Assembly: GCF_001949145.1 (NCBI RefSeq)
Contig: NW_019091358.1
Span: 682,961-746,960, forward strand
DNA from: Acanthaster planci
Lineage: Eukaryota
Length of the DNA stretch: 64,000 nt
Direction: 5' to 3'
Under the pieces are notes generated by a model. That model was not told where the DNA came from and did not search any database. It worked only from the letters and a program-made list of their open reading frames with translations. Shown piece by piece: positions 20,001 to 56,100 of the stretch (the first letter of the stretch is position 1; every line of letters begins with the position of its first letter). Made by a program: the position numbers and the translations under genes.

Positions 20001-23000
20001 CTGTGCAAAATATGGATACCAAACTAATGAGGGTATGACTAATGAGAGTCTTGTACCCGATCCCTCTCTTACAGCTGAAGATGCTCAGATTCTCAGTCAG
20101 ATCCCCAAGGTGAAAGTACTACGTAATGACAGGAGAGAAGGTGAGTAATGCAACAGAGGAAGAGTTTTCATGTGGATGATGTCCAGGATTGCTCCAATTT
20201 CCATCAGGAACGCCTCAGCAAATTATTTGAGGAGTCTGGCTCACTTTTTCTCTGGGAAAAAAGTGAGGTCTTGTGGTTCTTCATTGCATTTATTTCAGGA
20301 TCTTGGGCATCACTTGAAATCAAAGTAGGAAAATTTCAGCTCTGCCTGAAAGCTGCAGGTCCCAGCATTATAGATCTGCCTCTCTAACCTAATTCACCCT
20401 TGTTGGACATGGGTCTGTAACTAAACCTCGGCTGGTCTGACTCTGCAGCAAAATGGAGGCATCCTGTTTGATGAAATAACCTCAACTTATAAATAGTATG
20501 ACAACAGCAACAAGAATAGCCAGGATGTGTTTTAATTAAACCCCATAATGAAGACTTCCTTCATAAAATTGCAAGGTGATTTTTGAAAATTGCTATCAAG
20601 GACCAGTACATGTACATGTATGTTTTTAGTGGTCCCTGTTTTGCAGAAGCACCACTGATAATTAAACTCTAAATCAATAATTATCTGTAGTTGCTCAAAC
20701 TTTGCCTGATAGTCAGCTCAGTGGGTGAACAGTAGCAAAGGCTGTGCCAAATACCCATATACATGTAGCCGAATACTTCATCGATCATCAAATATTCAAA
20801 TATTATTTTCCGAATTTGAATAGTCAAATGCAAACTTCATGAAAAGCTAGGGAGAATGTTCTTTTCTTTTAAATGAGAAAAATTGCACTGTGGAGGCTTC
20901 TTTCAAGCAGATTTAAACGAAAAGTGACAGAAATCTCAAAATGATTCAAAACTAGATTATTCATTGAAAAATGTAAAAGGACTAGAAATTTGCAATAAGG
21001 CAAGAAGTCTTGTTCATATCTTAAATCTTGCTAAATCGTGGCTGGAGATACTCCTAAATGTGAGAAGCTATTATAGTAATTATAATGTACAATTGTGTGC
21101 CTTATTGCAACTGACTTTGTATATGGTTTGTTCATCAACAATCTGCCGGTCAGGTACGACCAAATATTCAGATTTTCAATCAAATTGAAGGTTGAATATT
21201 CGAATAGTGAATTATTCGAATTGACTCAGCCCTAACTGTACCTTGGTTGGATTTGGTTGAACTTACAGAGGTGGAGGGGTGTTTTGCTGCCAAGAAACTG
21301 AGTGTCAACAAATTTTGATAAACTTTGGCATCTTGCTTTAGAAATAGAGACAGAAGAGAGAAAAACACTGGATTTGCAGATCCTTGATTTGGCACGTTGT
21401 TGACACACAGCTGTTTGAATCTATCATCTGTAGAGTAGTTTCCTCCTGGAAGGGCTCCACTTACAGTCCCACAGGAATCCACTTTTTATTACCCAAGGTA
21501 GCCAAAAAGTGATTCAAGCAATGGTACCTCTGGGAAACAGGTAAATCCTCTGTTAAACACCCTGACTTCCCCTTTCCCAGGTTGTTTGCAACACAGAGCA
21601 AGGACCACGTTTACAAGGAACTTGTAAATGTTTTGGTATTTTCCCACACAACGTCAGGCATAGATCAAAACTTCTAACATCGGTTTTATTACACATATCC
21701 GGTGCTGACATTTTTGTACTTAGTTTGTAAGCTCTACTCATTTGTTTGTTTGTTTGTTTGTTGGGTTGTTTGTTTGTTTGTTTGTTTTTTTGTGCTCAAA
21801 ATTGGAGTTAGACATCAAAATCATCAAACCAAAATTGAAAACCTCACTGGAGGCACTTAGATCCAGCATCTGCATAAAAGGGGAGAATGCTTGACATTTT
21901 TGGTACAAAAAAGGGGGCTACCCAAAATGGAGGTGAAAACTCTTGATCTTCATTGAAATTTCTGTCTTGAAAGTTATTAGTGAACCATGTGAGAGTGGAA
22001 GGACAAACTGGAAGAACGTATAAGTGAAAGAGGGAGGGAATAGATATGATGTACATGTATGCTCCAGATCTGCTACTGGTCAACATAAATTGTTTGTAGT
22101 TGCTTTTAGACCGATGTCTTATACTGGACAGTAGGCTTACTTGAATGTTAAGAAGGTCAATTTTAAAATCTAAACACCTGTCTGTGGTATGGGACATGCG
22201 TTCCAAGGATGGTGAGATGTTAGTGCTCGAGGTGAATAGTGCTCTTGAAAGATGCTTTAGGGTGTCTGACATGTTCCTTGCCCTCACAGCATAATGCTTG
22301 GAAACATTTTCTGAGAAGATGATGCTTAATGTATGTGGTTCTCGATCTCATTGAATTGTGTGCTGTTGTGCGATTTTCAGGTCTTATACGATCGCGAGTG
22401 CGAGGGGCTGATGCAGCCAGTGCCAGCATCCTCACGTTCCTGGACAGTCACTGCGAGGCAAACGTAGACTGGCTGCCTCCACTGCTGCATAGAGTTCACC
22501 AGGTCAGTCTGGAGTGAGAGACTATTAGGCTGAGGCACCCCCCCATGTCCACAGATGAAGCACTCTTCCGCCAAGGGTACAAGATTAAAAAGGCCCAGGG
22601 AAAAATTTCATACTATAAGCAGGATTAATCCCACCTTAGTCATGTCCTCAATCTTGCAGACGGTTTGTGATGCACACATTTTGTGTTACCTCGTGTATCA
22701 AGGGGGGTAGAGATATATTGGTTCTATATATAAAAAAAAGTCTGGTTGCTGATCTGAAGAATTGTAATTTGTATGTACTTATTCTTTCTGCAATATATCT
22801 TCTTGTCATTCTGTAAGATGTTTGGGTGCCTTGTGCAATTGTCAGGTTGAGTGATGGGCAGATTGAAACTTGCAGTGACAATCATTCTAGGTTTCCGTCA
22901 TTCGATGGGTGGTTTGAGTCCTTGAATAGTACATGTAGCTTACGTTAGAAAATAAATAGATTATGCTGGGAATCAAAATGTCAGGTCCTCTTATTTTTAA

Positions 23001-26000
23001 GATATGTCTGCATTTATTTCAGATCACTGAAGTCAGCATAAAGCAGTTTGAAGGAGTTTACATTTGCGATGATTTCCCTAAAGAGCGTTTTGTGATATGA
23101 CTAGGTAGTGCAAGTTGAACCATCCAGTTCATGCACATGTAACTACACTCCAATGAGTGTACAGTGGTTTTCCCATTGAGTATCGGGTAGATGTTATAGG
23201 CAAGGTATTTGCATCTTATGCCAAAATAGATGCTCGGTTGGATGTGCCAGAGCACAACTTCGGCAGCTGATGGACGCTGGGAATTGATCTGAGACCGATA
23301 GAATGTTGGAGGCCCTCAGGTGCCTCAGTGCCAAATGTCAGGCATAAGCCCCTGCTATGGAGCTGGCCAAATCTCTTGTTACCGCGATCAGATTGGGACA
23401 AAGATCTGACGTCAGCCAGGCGCAGCCAGGATCGGCAGGTACGTGCAAAGTGAGCGTGATGGCAAGGAGAAGGCGGGGGGGGGGACGTCAGTATCTGAAG
23501 CCGGGTGCCGAGCAAGCTGGACCTGGGATTAATCCCCCCCGTTCCTGATTTTTGAGGAAGAAAAGATGGCGTAGTTCTCTGGGGCCGGAAAGACGAAATA
23601 CCCCCTTCCCTACCCCGCCCCCAGTTCTGGGAAGATTAAAAAAAAAAAACTGGGCCCATAGCGGAGGCTTTGGAATGACTTTGCAGGTTCGAGGAAGACT
23701 GAGACCCACCTGCTAATTTATTTTGGATTTGGCCGATGTCCCTTAAATATCTGAAACTGCTATCAGTTTCCTGCATAGATGAGGAGGATCGAGGGACGTT
23801 TCTTGGCAGAGTGTCTGGGGAGTTCATATCAAGAGGTAGACAGTATGTCGAGCAGAAGTTGAGATTCTGTAGCCCAGACAGCATGGAATCCTGATGGACT
23901 GAAAGGATGTGATCACAGACCATCGGCTAGACCTGTTAACTGACTTGCAGCTTGAACCAAGATTGGCATCACCCGTTTCCCCTGTGGAGCCCACACTGGG
24001 GGACCCTTAGTGTTGCCCTAGTGAGTCTGTTTTTAGAGGCCCACCCCTTCTTTCTGATGATTGTTTGGAGGGGTGGGGCTGAAGATGATACCCCTTGCAC
24101 AACAGCAGCGATGATCAGTTACATGTAGGCCCACACTTGCACATTGCAGGCCGTACCTAATAAGTGGCAATGCTATATTTATGATTCATGCTGCAGGCTG
24201 TGTCTACAATAAGCTCAGGAAAAGGATAGTCTTGTCTTGTCAATCATTTTGTCTTACTGAGCACAACCTTTGAGTGGAAATGCAAGCTTCAAAAACCCTT
24301 CAGTTCATCCCATGTGACACTTCCCCATCCATGCATGTGAAGGGATATTGATGAAACCCCAGAACACGAGAAGCACTCACAGTAACAGCACAGTTCGGTC
24401 CATCGACTTGAGCAAGCAGTGCAGGCTCTGTACAAGCTAGACATTTATTTTGACGGCCGGGACCGTGATCAGGCTATTATTGCAGTCATTTGGACGTTAG
24501 TTGGTAAATGTTATGGGTGGATGGTGAGGGAGGCCTTGTTTGAACTTCATCAGCAGCTGTCTAGCACCCCACATGGCAGAGAGATGACTTTGAATTTCTC
24601 GGCCCAAAAGATCGGATTGACTTTCTTTTTTCTTCTCCTCTGTAGAAAGAAAACCTGTTCTCATGCAATTTCCTGTATTAAAGCTGTAGCTTCACCTTAG
24701 TGTTCGCTTTTAAAAGTATCAGAGGTGTGATAATTCAGCTTTTAGCTGATTTCTTGAGCCCTTTTTGTTTAGATGTTAACCCTGAATTTTGGCTTTTTGA
24801 ATAAACTATTATAAAGCACACGCATGGTTTGTTTATACACACCTGTTACACACCTTTGAGAGCCGAGTGCCAGTGTGTGAGTGTTGATATGTGTGGGTGC
24901 ATCATAGAGCCATAACAGTGTGGGATTCACGGTCTACAGATGGAGGCACCCAGAAGATTTGGCATTTCCAGTTTCTTTGTAAATGATCCAAGGCTCAGCA
25001 CTGACACTGGGCACAGTGTGGGTGTCACCATCCCTTTTAATCACCTTTGTAAAATTAGGCTTCATTGTGGATAAGAAAGAATGTTTCTCTGGTCTTTTGC
25101 CAGTTGTCTAGTCGCTCAAAGGTTCATCACAAGTCTTCTGCTCCCAAATCAAGTCATGGTTCAGGTGGACTTTGGCAGTCATTCTTGTCCCTTGGTACTT
25201 GGGACTGGATTACGTTACTACATAATGCCAAACTCCCCAAGGCTTTAAAATGTCAGTCATATATATACATGCACTGGGCCTATCTTGCATTTCCATGCAT
25301 TATTGACAGTCAAGGGTCGTTGTGCGGAATTTCATATTTACAATATTAGCATTCGCAACAGATAGAGCGCTCCTGTACTTGTGTCCTGGTTCCTGAATAT
25401 TTTCCAACAGCCATTCAAGTTATACAGTGATGATGGGGATAGCAGGCCTGCATTGAAGGGCATCTTTGCTTTGCCACAATGCAAAGAAGGAAATCCTATA
25501 GTCCTCCACAAGAACCCTCTGCCCAAAGAGTGAGAGGTTTTTTTTTCATCTTTCCTCCTGTTTTCTGTCTCTTTGCAGGATCAGCAAACCGTTGCGAGTC
25601 CCTCGATAGATATTATATCCATGCATACATTCAATTACACGGCAGCCATGACAGATCTCAGGGGAGGTACATACCGTATATCTATACATTCAAGCACTCT
25701 GTGTCTAAGAAAACTCATCACCAATGCCATTAACACACAACACGCCATAACAAACTGCATCCTCCAAACATAACCACTGCTCATAATACATGCACATCTA
25801 ATGCAAGGGACTGTTCTGTTCTAAGTCTGTCAGTTCTTTGGAATCAGTTCAGGTTGCTTTATTCACAGATAGAAGTACAAGGCGTAATGTTGTTAACAGT
25901 TCATGTACAGTGACATTTGTTTCATCAAGTATTATTGATTTGGGTTTGACTTTGAAGGGTCCCACCCTTCTTACCATGACATTCGCCATGGGGCCTGATT

Positions 26001-29000
26001 GCTAGAGATACTGGTAGGCATACTTGTATTTATGGGTTCGCATACGAAGAGTCTTAGCAGAAGTTATCTCCAGGCGCAAAAGATACAAATCAGTACCTAG
26101 CACCAGGTTGCTATGGACTGAAAGGCTTGCTTGTCATGGAGCCAGTCATCAACAGGTTCTTGGGCTTGAACTGTCATCCATGTGTCTGTACCCTGCTATT
26201 TAAAACTTAACTGGGAATTTTGGATTTTTTTCGTTTTTTGGTTTTTTTTTACGAACAAGGAGGTTTTATAATAATCAGGCCCCACAGAACCATGCTGTCT
26301 GTAGATAAACTTAGATTTCCTTTTCTGTGATCTCTGTTTAAGAACTTATTGTCGCAATTTAATAAACTTCCTTTGAATGACGTAGATTTACATGTACATA
26401 CACTTGCGGCTGGATGAAAAGGAAACTTGAATTTTGCCAGATAACTCAGATGTGTGAGAATTATCTGCTTCTTCAATTCGTTTGCTTTTCATTCAGTTTC
26501 TATAGATTACACTCTTTTTCAAAAATAATGTACGGTGTATATTTTGTTAATTTCATTTGTTTAAATCATCCTCATACTTACATATCTGTTTTCCATTTTT
26601 CTTCTTTCCCTCTGTTTGCATCTCGTCAACTTTGGGCAAATGCTCAACACTCATTTGTACAACTCATGATGCCATTTCCACCGTAACTGCTTCACGCTGC
26701 AAAACTCACGTTGTGAAACTCCTCAAACGCTGTCTGTTCCATCGTTGTGCCGTGAACTTATCCTGTGTCACCTCCATACCACGGAACTCATTAATTCTAC
26801 GAAACTCAATTTCACGTGTGTTCAAAACTCACCATGCTTGTAACTTCCTGTGCTGTGAATGGAATTACCCATTTGTGCCTGTCTGTGGGGATGTGGAACT
26901 CTTCTGAACTTGACACTCGCCTGGCCACCCACAACTACTCACAACTCACAACATGACAACTCAGGACAATACTCGTGTTGTGAGTCCTATCATCGATGTC
27001 ATCAACTTGGATTCCTTTAAATACATAGGTGCTTCTCCCGATCTTCGAGGAGGTAAAACTCAATCATTTCTCAAACACATTGATGGTGCATCGTTCTTTT
27101 TTATAATATTTCATATTGTCACCGACTGGGGACCAATTTAACCAGAACTTCACCTGTTTTATTTTATAACACCTCACCCACAGATTCTATATCTTGATTG
27201 GCCGAGAGGAAGTCACATGGCATTCGCTATGTTTGCCATCTTGCTTTTCATGGCCAAAAAAATATACCTGTAACAACCAAAATACTGTTCCTGTAGCAAC
27301 CAAAGAACTTTATTCATGCCCATTGGCATTATGCGCAAATACATACTCATGTGCACGTTCCGAGCATCCAAGTGCTATGGCTACAGAGCAGGGTTCAAAC
27401 ATCAGAGGTAGTTTGGAGAAGTACATGTACTAGTAATTTTTCAACCAATTTCTTATTCAAATAGACGTACCTATTATGATTAAATTAATCAGTTATTGCT
27501 TGAATTAAGCCCGAATCTGTGGGTGAGGTGTTATAAAACAAATATTGACTATATCCTGGTTCAGTTGAACTAGCCTCTCCCTCTGTGATCTACGGAGTGA
27601 GCATTCTGATTTCCCATGGCTTCACCTTGGGAAAATAAAGTGCTCTATGAATCACCTTGAAAAGCTAGTTTAACTACACTAGTTGAAGCAGTCAATATTT
27701 GTATGCTTCTCAGATATACATTCCATCTATCAATGCGCAGTCTTGTGAGTTAACCTGAAGTTGGTTTAGTTTAACTATGAGTTATTCTTTTTTGTGTCAG
27801 CTGAAATTGAGACTTGTCCCATCTGGAATCTTGTTTCAAATTACAAAAATCTGCACTCATTATATGAATCAATTACATGTTGACAGGCCTTTGCGAGATA
27901 TCTGTTTATGCACAGAAAACACTTGTCAGTTATGTCAACATGTCACCTCCACCATTTTATGCGATGCCAGAATCGCTTCATTTCAAATCTTTCCCTGTGA
28001 GGTGTGTTTGATTTCAGCTTGCTTTGCTAGCTGAGAACATTGCAAATTCAAGGTGACCAGGCGTTGACAGATTTATTCAAAGAAAAGCAAGTCATGGTGC
28101 TCATTTTTTTTATACAACGAAATCTGAGTGGAGAGGGTGTTTATGAGAGCAATCTATCCACCGTATCCTTTGGAGCTTGTGGAGCCATTTTGATGGAGGC
28201 TGAGCTCAAATTTCCAACTCCTTATTCCTCCACAATGAGATCCCAGATGACATTTCATGAGCTTTTTTATCACTTGAAGAAACCTCCTCATGAAAAAAAA
28301 GCATAAAATCACTTCAATCAGAGTGACGAACAGAAGTCTGGGATTCTCTTAAAGTGAGAATGGGGTAACATGAACCCTAAGAAAAATAGAGAGTCAATAA
28401 TCACAATGATCTCATCAGAACTCGGAGGCAGGTGCTTAGATCAGGTTTCAGAGGCAGGTTGTAAAGGCATTCAAGTACACGAGGTGGGTTTTTTGTTTGT
28501 TTTTGGTTGGGTTTTTTTTTCAGAGTTGCATGTTGGATGTACCCCTCTGAACCCATCAAAGGAGACATATTTTCAATCTTGATTTTGGCTGCTTCAGCTT
28601 CAAATGTAGAATTTTTTTTAAAGGTCTACCGGTATGTTAAAAAATGTGTAGGAAACATATATGCAAAGAAGTGTGAAGTTTCCCTTCTCTCAGACCAGAG
28701 AAATAATTTTGTCCAGGAATTTTCCGAAGGAGGTTTAGAGGAGAAAATCAGCAAAAATGAGGGATTCAGGATTACCCGCCCACAATTTTTGCACTGGATT
28801 GTGGAAATTTCTTTTTAATATATTTTGGCTATTGAAATTTTTTATTTCTCTCATTAAGTGCTATGGTTGATTGCTCCTGGCAAATGCATACATCTGTCTC
28901 AACTGCATGCTAAATAATAAAAAGGGGAAAGCCTGTCATAGTGTTGATGTTACAATTTGGCTTCTACCTGTATAGACCCACAGGTAGACTGATCCATGAA

Positions 29001-32000
29001 TCATTGTCTGGTCTAGCACACTTAGGAAGGAAATCCTCGGCATATCGAAGGTTCGGGTTCAGCAGCTTTCAGTGAGCCCTACCTGTGTATAACCTGGAGT
29101 CTGCCTGGTTATCTTTTTGTATTCATTAGAGTTTGGTTTTAAGGTACCGTACTCTGTAAGTTTTATTCAGGCTTTGAGCTAATTATAAGGTAGTGTGGCA
29201 TGCCCGCAAGTTTTTTCCTCTTTGGGTCTCACAACACTCTTTGAAATCTATGTAAGAACTTTCTACAAAGATTTTCAACGTGTACCTTGTAAAATATTTT
29301 AAAGGAGTTGGGCTGGTGGGTTACATGTGGGTGTTTTTATGCAATAATATCTGCTTTAGTGTCAGATCAGTTCTGAGAATACTACGAATGGTTGATATCA
29401 TGTTTCTGTAGGTTTTTTTTAAATTTTCTAAAGGAAAAAGCAGGGTTTTTTTTTAAATTAGAATTTCAAGAAATTATTGCAAGTCTAAGGAACTGAATCT
29501 TTTGAAGCTAATTACTAAACTGACAGAACTTTTTAAAGGTGGACTTAATCGTAATTACAGAGCAGCCAAAGAACATTCAAATTTTATTTTGCTAAAATTT
29601 CCAATCTAAACCTGATATGGACAAAAGTAGCCAGAATTTCAAAATCCCACTTAGAGTTGTATTCAGTGGTTTTAGATAAAGTGAGACTGTGACTGCTGCT
29701 TGCGACTGCTGCTCAAGGGTAATGTTGTTTTTTCCAAGGAGAAAAAGAAACATTGTGATTATTAAGTTTCTTTTTACTTTTTAATGTCATGGGGAAAATC
29801 GGACAGTTTTGAGCACCTTGACTTCCCGACAGGTCCTACAGACTGAAGTAATGTTATCCTACTTCATCAGTGCCACATCATTAATACCTTCTACACAGTT
29901 GGGTCAGTAAAATGTATGTACTTAGCGCAAGTACACCCATACTTACTCCATAGTTAAGGGGACTTCACACTCGTTGAAATAAAGTATTATGGAGACAGTT
30001 TTTATCCCCAGAACTCTGTCCCAAATTTGCTGACAAATTGTCCCCTAAAACTGAGGCTGGCCTGAGCGATCATGCCCTGTTTGTGAAAAAAGTGCAATTT
30101 ACATACATCCTTTCTTTAACGTGTTGAGTTGGTTTGGTCCGCAGGTTTTGATTGGAGCCTACACTTTAAATGGGAGCACATGCCAGTGGATCAGAGGTCA
30201 AGGAGAAAAAACTCTATCGAGCCAATCAGGTGGGTATGTTCATCCAATCAGCTGATGGGATCATTCCATGTAGGTTCATTAGGCACTCGCACCCAGTCAG
30301 ATAATTTCTTTAGAGAACACTTGCATACATTTCTACCCGTTTCCCAAATGTTGCTTCTTTGTCAGTTGTGTGCCACAGGCCATGACTACTTTACCCCCGC
30401 GGTGGAAAGCTATGCGTGGTGGTAATTTCATGCCAACACAATACAAAACACTGAAACTAAATGTTTTCTTCATTCCTATACTTCTAAACTACCAGCGTGT
30501 CTAATGCCCAGTGCAGGAGACACTTCTGTGACCTGCAAAAAGAACAGTTTCATCTCAACAGGGTTTCTTTCAGGTGTGCATGTTGTGCATGTAAACAGTG
30601 CTGTTGAGGAATGCAGTTTTCACCACCAACATCCTTTGTGAAGAGTGTATTAGTTTATGCAGAAGTGCCAAAAGCAACAGACAAAGAAAGTTAATGACCT
30701 TGCGGCGTTGACTCAGTTTTTGGCTCTGTTTCTGACATTTAAACTGCTTGTAGGCCAATACTTCTCAAAGAAAATTCCATGGTTTCTCTTCAGCACCTGC
30801 ATCCGAAAATATGCACAGAATGCATTTTCTGGTTTTAAATTATTTATCAAAATGTGATTTTTTTCATTGCAATTTTAGTCCGATCTTACTCATTAGTCTG
30901 GATGGCAGCGAGGTGGCAGCGGTGTAAAAGCCTTGTTAAGAAATTAACCCCCTCCCCCCACAATGTTAGACCAGCGCTTTGATTTCTAAAAATTCTCCCA
31001 ACTTTCAAACATTAAGTGTTCCCAGGTCTACTCTATACTTGTTTGCAGAAAATGAGGTCTTTGTACACCTACCTCATTATTTTTTAATTTAGAGTTTCCC
31101 GACTTGTTCAGACTCAGTGGGAAAAAAAAAGAAAAAGCACAGGCCTCCTTGAACTTTTCGAAAAGTTCTGATAAGAAACTGGGAATTACATGTACTTTAA
31201 TGTGGACTGAATAAAAGAATGTACCTCTGGGCTAGTACCACACAGTTTGATGCTACACTATCAAAATATGATTTCTGTTTTGAGTGAAAACTCCAAGGTC
31301 AGGGATGAAAATCAGTTGAAAGAAATCAGTAATTCTGATGTGCAGCTGAGGTTCCTTTATAATTTCACTGGTCTTCCAGCACATCAGTGTCCAGTGCCCA
31401 GTATTTTAGCCTAGAGGCAGGCACGGTAATCACATTCAAGGCAGAGCTCACTTATCCTGGCCACAGCCTTGGTCAAGCTTCCGTTGCCGACAAATCAAAT
31501 CATGCAAATTGTAAATATTTCCAGTCTCCCAGTAACCCACTTTCCTGGTCTCCACATGTGACCTTTGCACCGTAGTGATATGCATGACCTGCATTTGCCT
31601 TATCATATGCAGAGGCATAGCAACCAGAGGGGAGGGGGGTGCAGTGTGGCACCCTCCCCCCCCAAATAATTAATTCCAGTCGACAAATAGTGCATTGGTC
31701 TGCAAATGAATCTAAAATCGGTACATAAATAAAAGAAGTTGGCCATCAGCATTTCCCCTGAAGCATGAAATATACCATTTACATTTTACACAAGTTACAC
31801 AAGTTGGTAAATTGCATGACACACCCCCCCCCCAGAAAATGCCTTCACTACACTCCTGATCATATGCAATATTGTCAATGCATGTCACTCCTTTCTAGAT
31901 CAAGTTGTGGACAATTCTGGTACATTTACATGTACTCAGTGCCCTTTCATGAACATATATGTAATTACAAACACGCAAGTGCTCAATCTTATATGGCGTG

Positions 32001-48330: not shown

Positions 48331-49788
48331 GGAGGAAACCGAGAAGCATGGACTGATTTTTTGTTGCTCTTCACTTCCTTCTCTCACTTCTTGTACCAGC
48401 CGGGCTGCCTCTCGCCTCTTCATAAAATGTTGCCGTCTTATAACCGTTGCCACCAACGTACTCGTCACACTGTGGCTCTTGATCGAACACCCGTGTAATT
48501 CGCCAAGCAGAATTAAAGGCCATTGCTGCAGCGGCACAAGGCTCGTGGACAGCTGGGACGCGCGCGTTACATGCCTCTTCGACCAGTAGGGTGTCTTGAT
48601 TTGCCAAGAGCACGCTCGCGTCAAACTTAAGAACGCGCGTTCATTTGGAGAATCACACGGCATCCTATTGGTTGGGCATGTAACGTGCGCACACTACCTG
48701 CCCACGAGCGTCCACCGTAGCAATATGGCTTCTAATTCTGCTGGTAAGATCAGGTGTTTCCCACTTCGAAATAGACCGTTGTCTCATTCACGTTCGAGTA
48801 TAATTATTAATTAGGCCACAAAGGCACTAGTGCGCTAAAAGTCTAATTTTGCTGCTATTAGTTTCCCTTGCCCCCCCCCCAAAAAAAAGAATCTCTGGCA
48901 CGTTGCATTCTGTCGTTCTGGAACAGCCCCCATACGCCACTGTATACTGGATATCACCGTAGTCAAAGCTATTCAAGATCGTTTTGTAGACGATGTACCC
49001 TTTAACGTCTGGCCCGGCGGTATGGTATGCGCGCTCAGACCGGGTAAAACACCCGACCTCGACTCGTCTGCTACATTCGGGCCATCGCGTAACACAGACA
49101 CGATAACTTTCTTTATAATGTATTGATCGGTATTTCCCGTAATAAACACACAGCTGGTTCATACTGTTTGCGCGGGGGGGGGGGGAAGCGGTACCACGTG
49201 ACCTATACACGCAACTTGGGAACGGTCACCAGGAGGTCACCACTAGGGTGTGGTGGCGGCAGCTGCCATTACCGCCTCACCACTCTTCACTGCTTTATCG
49301 TCACCGTCAACTTCGCCACACGACAATCGTCATCTTCAAACTCTTAAACTTTATTTTCACGGAAAACCAATATCGCCACCACAACACTATCATCACTAGT
49401 GTCATCACTACCCTCATTCCGTCTGGTATCTTCTTGCCTTAATTCCCACCGGCAAACTCATTACTTACGCCAATTATTGGCGTAACTATGGGGTGTGGGG
49501 GGCATTACGAGGCATGTGCCTTCCGGGCAGGTCTGCCCCCCCCCATTACAACCTATGTACAAGCGGCTGTCCATCGGCTTTTGGTGCCCCATGAAAAAAA
49601 AAAGTATTCACCCCTGGGTGCCCTCCACCAAATTTCACCGTAGTTCCACCATTGCCAACAACACCAATTGCCATCCGGGCTACCTTTAACCCCATCACAG
49701 ACATACCCCAACCACCATCCTCACTAACATCCACCCCGTAACAAGCATGAATCGTCCCCCTGCTTTCGCCGTTCATTGGATGACAGAA

Positions 49789-52330: not shown

Positions 52331-52775
52331 GCTTTGAAACTTTACCCTGCCTGGCAGCTGTGTTACGCCAGCCTGATTATACAGAATCTCGCATATGTTA
52401 ATCAACGTCGCTGGGAGTCGTTGCGTACAAATTCACCAGGCACATCTGAATGAACCTCCCACCACAGATATAGATAGTACAGGACCTTTCCTGCGAGTTT
52501 GTAAAGATTAAGCCCGGAGATCGGTTGCTGCGTAACCGGGTGTGAAAATAAAATGGCAATCGCTTAACCAAACGGTGTGCAAAAAGCAATCCTGAATGGG
52601 ATCTGTTGCTGGATAGTATGATTAAGTTAAATCCCGTGTGTTTTTTTAAGGACACGGGTGAGGATAATCTAGAGCGATCATGTGAAGCGAAAACTAGCGT
52701 ATGTAGTGTATTTGAAGAGTACTGCAACCAGTAGGTCTACTCTGAGATCGAGAGGTCTGAAAAATTTATTTGAAA

Positions 52776-53168
52776 ATGGCTTCTGGAAATGACACAGCCG
52801 GCGCTTTGTCAGTTCGCACATCTGCTGCCGCTTCATCAACAAATCCTGTGACCGAAGACCCGCCTTACCATCTTCTCTCACAATCTACCGGTACCGCCAG
52901 CGCTTGGACTGGCGGCCTGAGCAAGGAAGCTCCCAGCTCGGTGAATGGGCCAGATGACATCTTCACCCCGAGCCAGTACACGTGGAATCTGATCCTCGGC
53001 ATCACCGCGTCCGTCATCTTCGTGCTGGTCACGGTGGCCGCGCTGTTCGGGCTGATAGCGTTCAAGCGGTACATGAGGAAGAGGAACCGGACCCTGAGCG
53101 CAGACACCGGGGTCTTCTCGCCGAGAAGGGGCAGCAAGGCCGGACTGGACATGATCGATAATTCAGTG
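52776..53168 (+). CDS. First coding exon (131 codons) of an uncharacterised single-pass membrane protein
   Basis: aaaATGG start context, GC-rich codon usage, Ser/Thr/Pro-rich N-terminus with an NDT sequon, hydrophobic segment LILGITASVIFVLVTVAALFGLIAF followed by KRYMRKRNR, consensus donor |gtgagt at 53169 (phase 0). Confidence 0.8.
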
Positions 53169-56100
53169 GTGAGTTTGATTGTGCAAGAGGAGTTGCATGG
53201 GGAGCTGCAGTTAGTTTTCATTCAATTTCGTCTGGACTACTTATTCTTGTGTTAATTAAAATGTCGGTAAAGTCTGACAAAATAACATTTGTGCGCAAAA
53301 CGGGATAGGCCTATTTCAACCAAAATGTTAGAAGAATAATGGTAATATAGTCGGAACTACCTGTATCTTACTGTACGAAAAGGGGGAAACAAAATTAACC
53401 AGCAAAATTTCGCTCTAGGATTGTAATTCATATAGACTACAAAGAAATGAGCAACATAATGGTGAAGTTATTCAATCTTGCACGAGTGGCACCCAAACCC
53501 ACAATCCTACACTTTCTACTTCCATGCTAGGACAGATGTCTCAATCACTCAACGTCGCCGAGGTACTTACATGCTATTATTCATGTAGTAAGCAGGATTC
53601 GTGCACGGGCATACCTCAGAGGGTTACTCCGGCCCAAGCACGCCAATGATTTGCCCTCACAAGCTCTCGCGGGAACTACCGAGAATACGTAGCTTAATGT
53701 ATTACGTTAGAGAAGGACAAACTACCGTTCATTGGTTGTTCGTAGGTATTAATAAGGAAACAAAAAATTGAGGGTAGTTTTGATATAAATTTCACCAAGG
53801 TTCAAAAGGTTCAAGTTGCCAACGAGTATATAAGGCATACCGATCACGTGCATGCGCAGGGATGACAATAATGCACACTGTTGTCGGTACTCCAGTTGCT
53901 AATAGGACCTAGAAAATGCTCCGATTAATACATGACAAAACGCTCTTTCTGTGCCTGTAACCATGGTTATTTGCAAAAAGAATCTGCAACAGTTTTCACG
54001 TGGTGTTACATAAAACAAGAAATTAAAATGCGCGGCAGTGCACACGAACGAAATTATTTGTGTACTCTACTATACAGTGCATTAACGGGGCGCGTTGACG
54101 TCATTTCCTTTCCATAAAATCAGTCTAGGCTGCATTGTAAATAAGGATGGATGAAATGAAAATCATCTACCGTCCTTAATGCATTTGGAAAGCCAGGTGC
54201 AAGCTGTATAAGTTAGCCAGGCCATTGAGAGATGATATCGCACCAGGTGGAGCGTGCATGCTAATGGTAGTGTAATGGTGGGTCTCTCCTGCGAGGTAAA
54301 ATTACATCTATTCCTGGAACCATTAAGCAGATTCCTAAAAACCCTAGTGAAAACAACAAGCGTCATTACCGCGACCACGACAATAACTTGGCACCAAGTA
54401 CTACTAGGGATCGACCACTTTGCATGCAGGGTTCATTTTCTGGAAGGGGGTGTATGGCTGGTAGTAGATCTAAGTCTAAGATTTGTGTGTTCAAAGGTGG
54501 GCACAAGGGAAGAGCGATGTTCTCAAGCAAGCACTGGCACCACGATTCTTACCAATCGAAAATGTAATAACAAACGAAACTTCCTACAGAATCATTGCAC
54601 TGATAAGGTTACAGTGAAGCAGAAGTGGTAGATTCGAGTCCCGCCAAAACAATTCAAACAGTATCGCCAGGAAGTCTGAGATAGACGGACTGAAAATCTG
54701 TCTGTCCAAATAGTGACATTGCAAAGATCCATCAACGTTTCCCATCAGTAAATTTTAAAGACGTAGCGTGGCATCCACGGTCTTTCGTCGAGTAGCGTCG
54801 GTAGTGCTTGTCGGTACTCTACATACTTACCTCACGAGCGGTACCTGGAACGGGTCGAAGTCCGCTGAATGTCAACCATGTTCAACAAGACGCCGGAGAT
54901 TTGCACGGACATTTGGCCTGGGTAGGAGCTCTCGCTTGGAGCTTGCGCTTTTCGCATGCTTTGAAGGCAGCTGAAAACAAGCTACCCATGTCAGTGACAA
55001 ATAGTCATCGTGCTAGAGCACATGTGCTAGTCTGACTTCCTGAGCTTGTATAGATAGTCCTAGTACATAATACACAAGCTTAACACTGTACATGTATAGT
55101 GCCTGTGACGTAGCGTACAGTTTGTTTCTCTTGCAGGTCGAACATCTCAGTCTCATACCAAAGTGCTCAGGGTTTTGGGAACAGTGGTTAGGAGTTACTA
55201 GTGGGGGGCACAAAGGGGACACCAGCATCTTATGGGGGGCACCAGCTTTCAGTGGTGTGGTTTTTTGGGGGAAGTTTTTGTCAGCCTTCTTCAATATCCA
55301 TTCATCCTTGGGGGGGGTGGACCTAAGGGCACCGGGAATGGGGGTCACGTGCCCCCAGCCCCCCGCCCCCGTGACTGCGGCAGTGTTTGGGAAGTTCGAT
55401 AGTTGCTACCTGTAAGGCTGTAGGCCTATTTTGTCACAGTTACATTGCAAAATATGTTTCATGTACACCACCCTGGGCTAAATGAAGAAACCGATCTACT
55501 TTTGTTTAGGGAACAACGCTGTGTCGAATTAAGTTTGTGGCTTTATTAACAAAGCCATGCATAGATCTACAAGAAGATAAAACGGGTGTGAAAGTGATGG
55601 ACTACATGCGTGTAAAACCTGTCAGGTTCGTGCAAAGAAGAGATTATCTTGGTGGTTGCACTCTACACGCGCACTGCTCTGCTAAATGTGCAGATGCATC
55701 TGTAGTGACAGAGCCACTGGCGTCGATGCATCGAAAGCTTTTAACTTCAATTATCATTTGTGGAGTTGCAACTCGTTAGATGATGTGATCACGGCCGAAA
55801 ACCCGCTTTGGCAACTCAAACGTCCACTGCGCAGCGGTCCGCGAACCCATCGCAGTCACCTCTCTTGACGGCAGTGAGCTTAAAGATGGTCGGTACCTAT
55901 CCCAGGGGACATGATTCCGGTCATTGCAAACAACGGATTGAAAAAAATCTCACATTCATGTGAACGAACTTTCTGTAGTGTCACAAGCACCCCCCCCAAA
56001 AAAACGCAATGAGCTTGTAAACTCTCGCGTTGTCTCGTACGCATGGAACTGTGGCAAACGTCCATGGTCATCAACAGATCCATGGCAAAACTTCTAACCT

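Follow-up and report, generated by a model that had tools for sequence, protein, structure and literature searches.

The stretch of Acanthaster planci DNA analysed here (64,000 nt, hereafter the window) carries on its + strand a gene for a polypeptide GalNAc-transferase, the exons of which run from about 7890 to 42151. The product contains a GT2 catalytic domain with DxH and WGGE motifs and a ricin-type lectin domain (PF00535, PF00652), and the translation of constitutive exon U matched XP_022094288.1 (GALNT16-like isoform X1, Acanthaster planci) at 100%. As judged by sequence comparison, the gene would fall within the GALNT2/14/16 group, with GALNT14/16 as its closest named relatives. Between exon U and constitutive exon D lie exons A and B (Table 1), each 88 nt long and each running from phase 0 to phase 1, which are identical at 49 of 88 nucleotides and at 14 of 29 amino acids. 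Elsewhere in the window, a 164-codon open frame with a hydrophobic, membrane-like segment (52761-53255, + strand) is probably an exon of another gene.

Table 1. Positions of exons, splice signals and predicted elements within the window (position 1 is its first nucleotide).
Feature	Position	Strand	Details
Constitutive exon U, with DSHCE metal-binding motif	22381..22502	+	Donor CAG/GTCAGT, phase 0; RNA joints from 22502
Exon A pyrimidine tract and acceptor, conventional	25537..25578	+	AG-free length 42 nt
Exon A, 88 nt, derived copy, RefSeq isoform X2	25579..25666	+	RNA joints, Asterias orthologue
AG-exclusion zone	26506..26962	+	457 nt, AG scan of sequence
Candidate distant branch points (predicted)	26569..26581	+	Heptamer matches to TACTAAC
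Distal polypyrimidine tract	26585..26617	+	Best in the A-B intron, 27/30 pyrimidines
AACTC/ACTCA(Y) array interleaved with 9 TGTG	26649..26963	+	Candidate protein-binding or decoy branch sites
Proximal branch-like TACTCAC, predicted unpaired	26936..26942	+	A at 26941, -24, without pyrimidine tract
Predicted 13-bp hairpin	26944..26985	+	26944-26956 pairs with 26973-26985; acceptor CAG in 16-nt loop
Exon B, 88 nt, family-typical copy, RefSeq isoform X1	26965..27052	+	RNA joints
TAA, premature stop upon inclusion of both A and B	27018..27020	+	Frame analysis
Constitutive exon D, phase 1	30145..30229	+	Translation, RNA joints

Isoforms X1 (exon B) and X2 (exon A) of Acanthaster are both 546 amino acids long, and the same A/B isoform pair, with both members at 561 amino acids, is present in RefSeq for Asterias amurensis. 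Between these two species the A exons are identical at 21 of 29 residues and the B exons at 25 of 29. Acanthaster and Asterias belong to different orders with an old split; given that exon A has been kept on both sides of it, the exon looks to have been maintained by selection. Among the clustered proteins compared, Patiria miniata, Asterias rubens, Diadema and Clavelina contributed B-type proteins only, which does not imply that they lack exon A. When exon A was searched for with an intron-extended query, none of three candidates scored; when the Asterias exon A region was used, the best non-self hits among the 50 matches listed were B-like vertebrate GALNT14/16 proteins; and a profile search for the exon returned none that was clearly A-type among 121 matches. 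One Logan open reading frame (P0225) was observed to hold a divergent copy of the exon with partly A-like residues, and could represent an independent or related duplicate in another animal. In Clavelina lepadiformis (P0129/P0130), an annotated isoform of the orthologue carries a 27-residue insert after the flexible loop.

Usage of the two exons was assessed over region 22300-30300 in eight of the 22 listed RNA runs, comprising six raw-read runs (18-24% of each) and two contig runs. A joint was listed when a single run gave 3 reads with 2 starts, or when one contig supported it, so that rare splice forms are invisible at this threshold. Joints from U to A were found in nine reads (one in run X7, five in X11, three in X12, and none in X10, X14 or X15) and in a contig of X19, and the joint from A to D in one contig only (X18). 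Joints from U to B were found in six reads (one in X14, five in X15), having stayed under the listing threshold in the first run batch, and joints from B to D in 26 reads over the six raw runs (1, 2, 3, 0, 1 and 19, the last being X15) and in a contig of X19. No A-to-B or U-to-D joint was listed in the eight runs, at low depth and with the threshold applied. Because only U-to-A and B-to-D joints passed the threshold in the first run batch, some molecules containing both exons are possible. The A/B choice proposed in the first-pass annotation is thus real: A and B form a mutually exclusive duplicated pair, all four exclusive junctions occur, and the RefSeq isoforms are of equal length. Short dispersed repeats at 24720-24800 and 27430-27620 collected piles of off-target reads, and a 30-nt inverted repeat (27158-27187 and 27513-27542, with 325 nt between its 97% complementary arms) probably belongs to a small dispersed element, because many off-target RNA reads fall there.

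Exon use also differed between runs. Exon A was uncovered in X14 and X15 and was used in X11 and X12; X15 gave zero U-to-A and five U-to-B reads, compared with five and at most two in X11 (Fisher P 0.008-0.028, for a pair of runs that was picked after seeing the data). These differences are better evidence of regulation than is the AG-free zone upstream of exon B, which had earlier been offered as independent evidence that the choice is regulated; in the available text of PMC1431707, such a zone is by itself associated with alternative splicing and does not establish regulation.

The zone itself was borne out by a recount. An AG occurs at 26504-26505, the next is the acceptor AG at 26963-26964, and none lies in the 457 nt between them, so that the 3' end of the zone coincides with the acceptor that is used in RNA. 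Elsewhere in the window the longest AG-free gap is 137 nt on the + strand and 184 nt on the - strand, and in 60 simulated 64-kb order-5 Markov sequences it was 189 nt. The window rate of 0.0598 per base predicts 27 AGs in the zone, the window rate of G after A applied to its 113 A's predicts 24, and its own base composition predicts 16; the 25-30 first quoted thus stands as the upper estimate of a 16-27 range. Depending on the expectation used, the probability of finding no AG is 2e-12 to 3e-8, and none of 20,000 shuffles of the zone was AG-free, the fewest AGs in any shuffle being 3. The AG-free stretches at 11 other scored acceptors of the same gene are 14-64 nt long, a few of their coordinates being off by 1-2 nt. 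On either side AG density is normal, with 46 AGs in 25667-26505 (839 nt, 5.5 per 100 nt) and 20 in 27053-27500, 3' of exon B (4.5 per 100 nt). A C/A-rich stretch at 49200-49740 has the highest YCAY density of the window and contains AG gaps of 137 and 112 nt.

We considered whether the zone could be a by-product, that is, a G-poor decayed repeat or protein-binding array that lacks AG by chance and involves no scanning. Its low G content (14%), its richness in AACTC and its short ACTCACA tandem (3.7 copies, 26937-26963) would agree with such an origin. However, composition still predicts 16 AGs, not one of the 66 G's follows an A, and the zone ends exactly at the used acceptor; moreover, its periodicity does not exceed that of shuffles (P 0.62) and the window contains no other copy of it, findings on which a minisatellite origin was likewise rejected. 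We therefore hold the by-product explanation to be very unlikely. A coding origin was also rejected, the longest frame being 118 codons and the sole GALNT tblastn match being at chance level (E 3.7). In a pattern scan of metagenomes for orthologous introns, two matches came up, both by chance.

Near the 5' end of the zone, the heptamer TACTTAC (26575-26581, A at 26580, -385 from the acceptor) matches TACTAAC at six of seven positions, TACTAAC serving here as a general metazoan yardstick and not as a species-specific branch-point model. TCCTCAT supplies a second candidate branch A at 26574 (-391), and TGTTAAT a weaker one at 26550. The strong tract that had been described downstream of TACTTAC is present and is the best of the intron, and the exon B acceptor indeed has no pyrimidine tract adjoining it. 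As in the distant-branch exons discussed below, the zone abuts a used acceptor, a branch motif and tract lie near its 5' end, and AG density upstream is normal. Taken together, these data point to a distant branch point near 26574-26580 as the likeliest, and probable, cause of the AG-free zone. The AG exclusion begins 69 nt 5' of the first strong candidate (chance 0.007-0.04), so that the actual branch may be located more 5'. Across the six raw-read and two contig runs, where depth is low, no backward (lariat) joint was listed.

This distant-branch reading, first put forward on the strength of TACTTAC, thus stands as the best one and is unproven, given that an equally good heptamer omitted from the first-pass annotation lies at -24. 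This TACTCAC also matches TACTAAC at six of seven positions, is at a canonical distance from the acceptor and is predicted to be unpaired, and exon B might mainly use it while the distal site acts as a holding or secondary branch or as a U2AF platform, AG being excluded through minor use. In human minigenes, proximal branch sites mattered more than distal ones, and distal sites are often secondary to a proximal site (PMC5378181, available text). Against this stands the lack of a tract, pyrimidines making up 51% of the 35 nt that follow the proximal heptamer and 86% of those that follow the distal site. We regard main use of the proximal site as unlikely; even then upstream scanning must matter, because an AG loss this complete, extending over 457 nt, points to strong selection.

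The distal tract was also observed to resemble that of exon A, 25542-25563 and 26596-26617 agreeing at 86% over 22 nt (a local score of 30, with P 0.003 from shuffles), and the distal tract ends in TTTGCAT where its exon A counterpart ends in TTTGCAG. Eight other acceptors scored at most 25 against either tract. This likeness is possibly a relic of the duplication, or may have arisen by convergence.

Reads within the intron were examined as well. In X15, B-to-D joints exceeded U-to-B joints (19 vs 5, P 0.007), and 26572-26838 was covered at a depth of 2.4, compared with an average of 0.10 for 22567-26571; a contig of X18 spans 26716-26930. X7 has the reverse pattern, with a depth of 1.9-2.9 upstream of the candidate branch and 0.25 inside the zone, X10-X12 have zero coverage in 26572-26838, and the six raw runs pooled have mean depths of 0.38 upstream of the candidate branch and 0.50 inside. 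Given that exon D is covered at about 25 and exon U at about 11 in X15, 3' bias may explain part of the 19 vs 5 difference. Late removal has been reported for distal-branch introns (PMC5378181, available text), and the X15 pattern, which fits late removal of the U-B intron, is a weak hint of the same. Alternatively, the zone could be the 5' part of a separate transcript that is initiated in the intron, runs into exon B and encodes a truncated product from an ATG at 26953-26955, which is in frame with exon B and 12 nt 5' of the acceptor. This ATG, the restriction of X14 and X15 coverage to about 400 nt 5' of B, the X18 contig and the excess of D over U coverage in X15 would be consistent with such a transcript. 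Its product, however, would have neither membrane anchor nor DSHCE motif, no read-start cluster was listed, depth there is 0-0.25 in four of the six raw runs, and the loss of AG would go unexplained; a separate transcript is therefore highly improbable.

Downstream of the distal tract, the zone contains nine copies of AACTC and eight of ACTCA, compared with 1.5 in dinucleotide shuffles. This excess is significant after allowing for any 5-mer (P 0.004), and the array is the densest in the window. TGTG (9 vs 5.2 expected, P 0.05) and YCAY (23 vs 14.7 expected) are also frequent in the spacer. The same motif was seen 3' of both donors, where AAAACTCA(A)TCA occurs (25709-25720 and 27055-27066), and a CA-rich stretch at 25700-25810, just 3' of exon A and second densest in the window, is a possible exon A enhancer. 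As for candidate binding proteins, GLD-1 has a preference for UACUCA, and at that position Quaking favours A over C (PMC2905418, available text). Because of this preference and because ACTAA (Quaking-type) occurs zero times in the zone, a STAR-family protein is only a lead.

The predicted hairpin comprises the last 21 nt of the intron and the start of exon B (-16.9 kcal/mol, z -4.05, 0 of 200 shuffles), and its pairs have probabilities of 0.86-1.0 in an 850-nt fold. A helix as long was found at 2 of 600 random YAG sites, and a folding energy as low at about 10% of them; for three other acceptors folded alike, z was between -0.9 and 1.0. A GTGAGT within exon B (26980-26985), a potential cryptic donor, is also covered by the stem, and AACTCAC at -17 by the hairpin. 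The motif array and the hairpin were both found post hoc, and the functions given to them are predictions. An Rfam search of 25500-27700 gave a single match far below threshold (E 0.66), which was rejected. Competing long-range RNA pairings of the docking site/selector kind, with the zone as the selector region, could also enforce exclusion, and an arm pair of 25 nt (24496-24520 with 26925-26949, 72% complementary) would suit them. The best duplexes between 30-nt windows of the zone and three neighbouring intron regions are nevertheless within the range of shuffled targets (four shuffles each), and the whole zone folds no better than shuffles (z 0.42), which leaves such pairings the least probable of the explanations weighed.

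Scanning from a distant branch explains the AG-free zones of verified cases (PMC1431707, available text). In the mechanism that we favour, branching would take place near 26574-26580, served by its own tract, and the spliceosome would then scan as far as 26963, where the first AG lies. If an AG arose in the zone, it would take over the second step and ruin the mRNA, and selection would thus remove AGs. Exon B is probably slowed or repressed through the 345-nt spacer, with its AACTCA array and acceptor hairpin, and exon A, with its ordinary acceptor, would win in some cells when B is slowed. The distal-branch intron would presumably also be processed more slowly (compare PMC5378181, available text). 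Given that 88 is not a multiple of three, inclusion of both exons shifts the frame and leads to a stop at 27018, with eight exons remaining downstream; skipping of both likewise shifts the frame. The one-or-other outcome is therefore likely to be backed by nonsense-mediated decay, if junction-dependent decay operates in sea stars, as is assumed here.

In alpha-tropomyosin and alpha-actinin, exclusion is steric, the branch being very near the upstream donor. In the starfish gene 914 nt separate the exon A donor from the candidate branch, compared with a steric threshold of under 50 nt from donor to branch (PMC5740500, available text), so that steric exclusion of the alpha-tropomyosin type is ruled out and the exons shift the frame instead. 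The distance had been put at about 910 nt and judged too long for steric exclusion, correctly; the further claim that another mechanism is needed holds insofar as steric exclusion is out, but that mechanism need not be exotic, as frameshift and decay can supply it. In other respects the locus is like alpha-tropomyosin exons 2/3 and alpha-actinin NM/SM, which are duplicated exclusive pairs with a distant branch for the downstream exon (a candidate one in the starfish) and with regulatory elements between branch and acceptor (PMC1431707, available text). Frame-shifting lengths occur in 377 of 629 human mutually exclusive exon clusters (60%; Hatje et al. 2017, PMC5740500, available text). Like the human frameshift/NMD clusters, the A/B pair consists of homologous exons of equal length and the same phases, with a length not divisible by three and a stop well before the last junction. 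GALNT is mentioned nowhere in the main text of PMC5740500, as far as that text was available.

The zone most resembles those of PTB exon 11, nPTB and GABBR1 exon 23, in which a long AG-free zone with a 5' branch motif and tract, and with normal AG density upstream, precedes an alternative exon. PTB exon 11 has an AG-exclusion zone of 381 nt with a verified branch at -351 (Gooding et al. 2006, PMC1431707), nPTB has one of 438 nt with a predicted branch at -389, and GABBR1 exon 23 is a further distant-branch-point exon with such a zone (available text of the same source). With 457 nt and -385, the starfish values are close to those of nPTB. Unlike the PTB-type cases, the starfish exon belongs to an echinoderm gene, its branch is a predicted one, and a second good heptamer lies at -24; the AACTCA array and the predicted acceptor hairpin are not described for PTB-type exons in the available text.

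One joint reading would combine these elements into a layered switch at the second step of exon B splicing. Branching would occur 385 nt upstream, a STAR-family protein (of the SF1, Quaking or GLD-1 type) would bind the roughly eight branch-like ACUCA sites, and the acceptor AG would be kept in the loop of the 13-bp hairpin. With these in place, the U-B intron would wait at the branched-intermediate stage during the choice of exon A. The arrangement would be a conserved one among sea stars, and the peptide-binding groove of the GalNAc-transferase would be toggled by it from tissue to tissue. As a whole, we consider this joint reading speculative and improbable.

Exons A and B align to residues 244-272 of GalNAc-T2, a segment in which Val255 and Leu270 are peptide-contact residues (PMC4432651, available text). 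All six positions that do not vary among 113 distinct non-A segments are kept in exon A; at 255 it carries Ile, as do 51 of the 113. Both A exons have His259 and Ser or Ala at 252 (0 of 113 non-A segments in each case), together with Thr264, Met267 and Thr247 (1 of 113 each). The A/B swap is thus predicted to change the acceptor-peptide preference of the enzyme. Splice switches in GalNAc-transferases are known from Drosophila, where pgant9A/B swaps the lectin alpha subunit (PMC6115407) and pgant5A/B the catalytic flexible loop (bioRxiv 10.64898/2025.12.22.695686). The fly switches retune substrate preference according to the available text of these sources, whereas the starfish effect is a prediction; unlike either, the starfish swaps the 244-272 segment of a GALNT14/16-type enzyme.

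No publication on mutually exclusive exons in the catalytic domain of a GALNT was found in a search that falls short of most subscription papers, and an echinoderm/Acanthaster literature search, made at the level of titles and with most subscription papers outside it, returned no paper on either the exon pair or AG-exclusion zones. Both isoforms are already known from RefSeq; what is added here is the zone with its motif array, the acceptor hairpin and the conservation of the pair across orders. No new class of mechanism is introduced, and the locus is a strong addition to a class known from vertebrate genes. If the branch lies at about -385, it would be on par with the longest case named among published examples, in the text available, and long-range acceptor scanning would serve regulated exon choice outside vertebrate models. 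Because the starfish case separates a distant branch from steric exclusion, it would be well suited to a clean study of the spacer's purpose. Two sea star orders retain the exon pair, and the segment that it swaps includes two peptide-contact positions of GalNAc-T2, at a position that differs from those swapped in both fly GalNAc-transferase switches, pgant9 and pgant5, as these are described in the available text.
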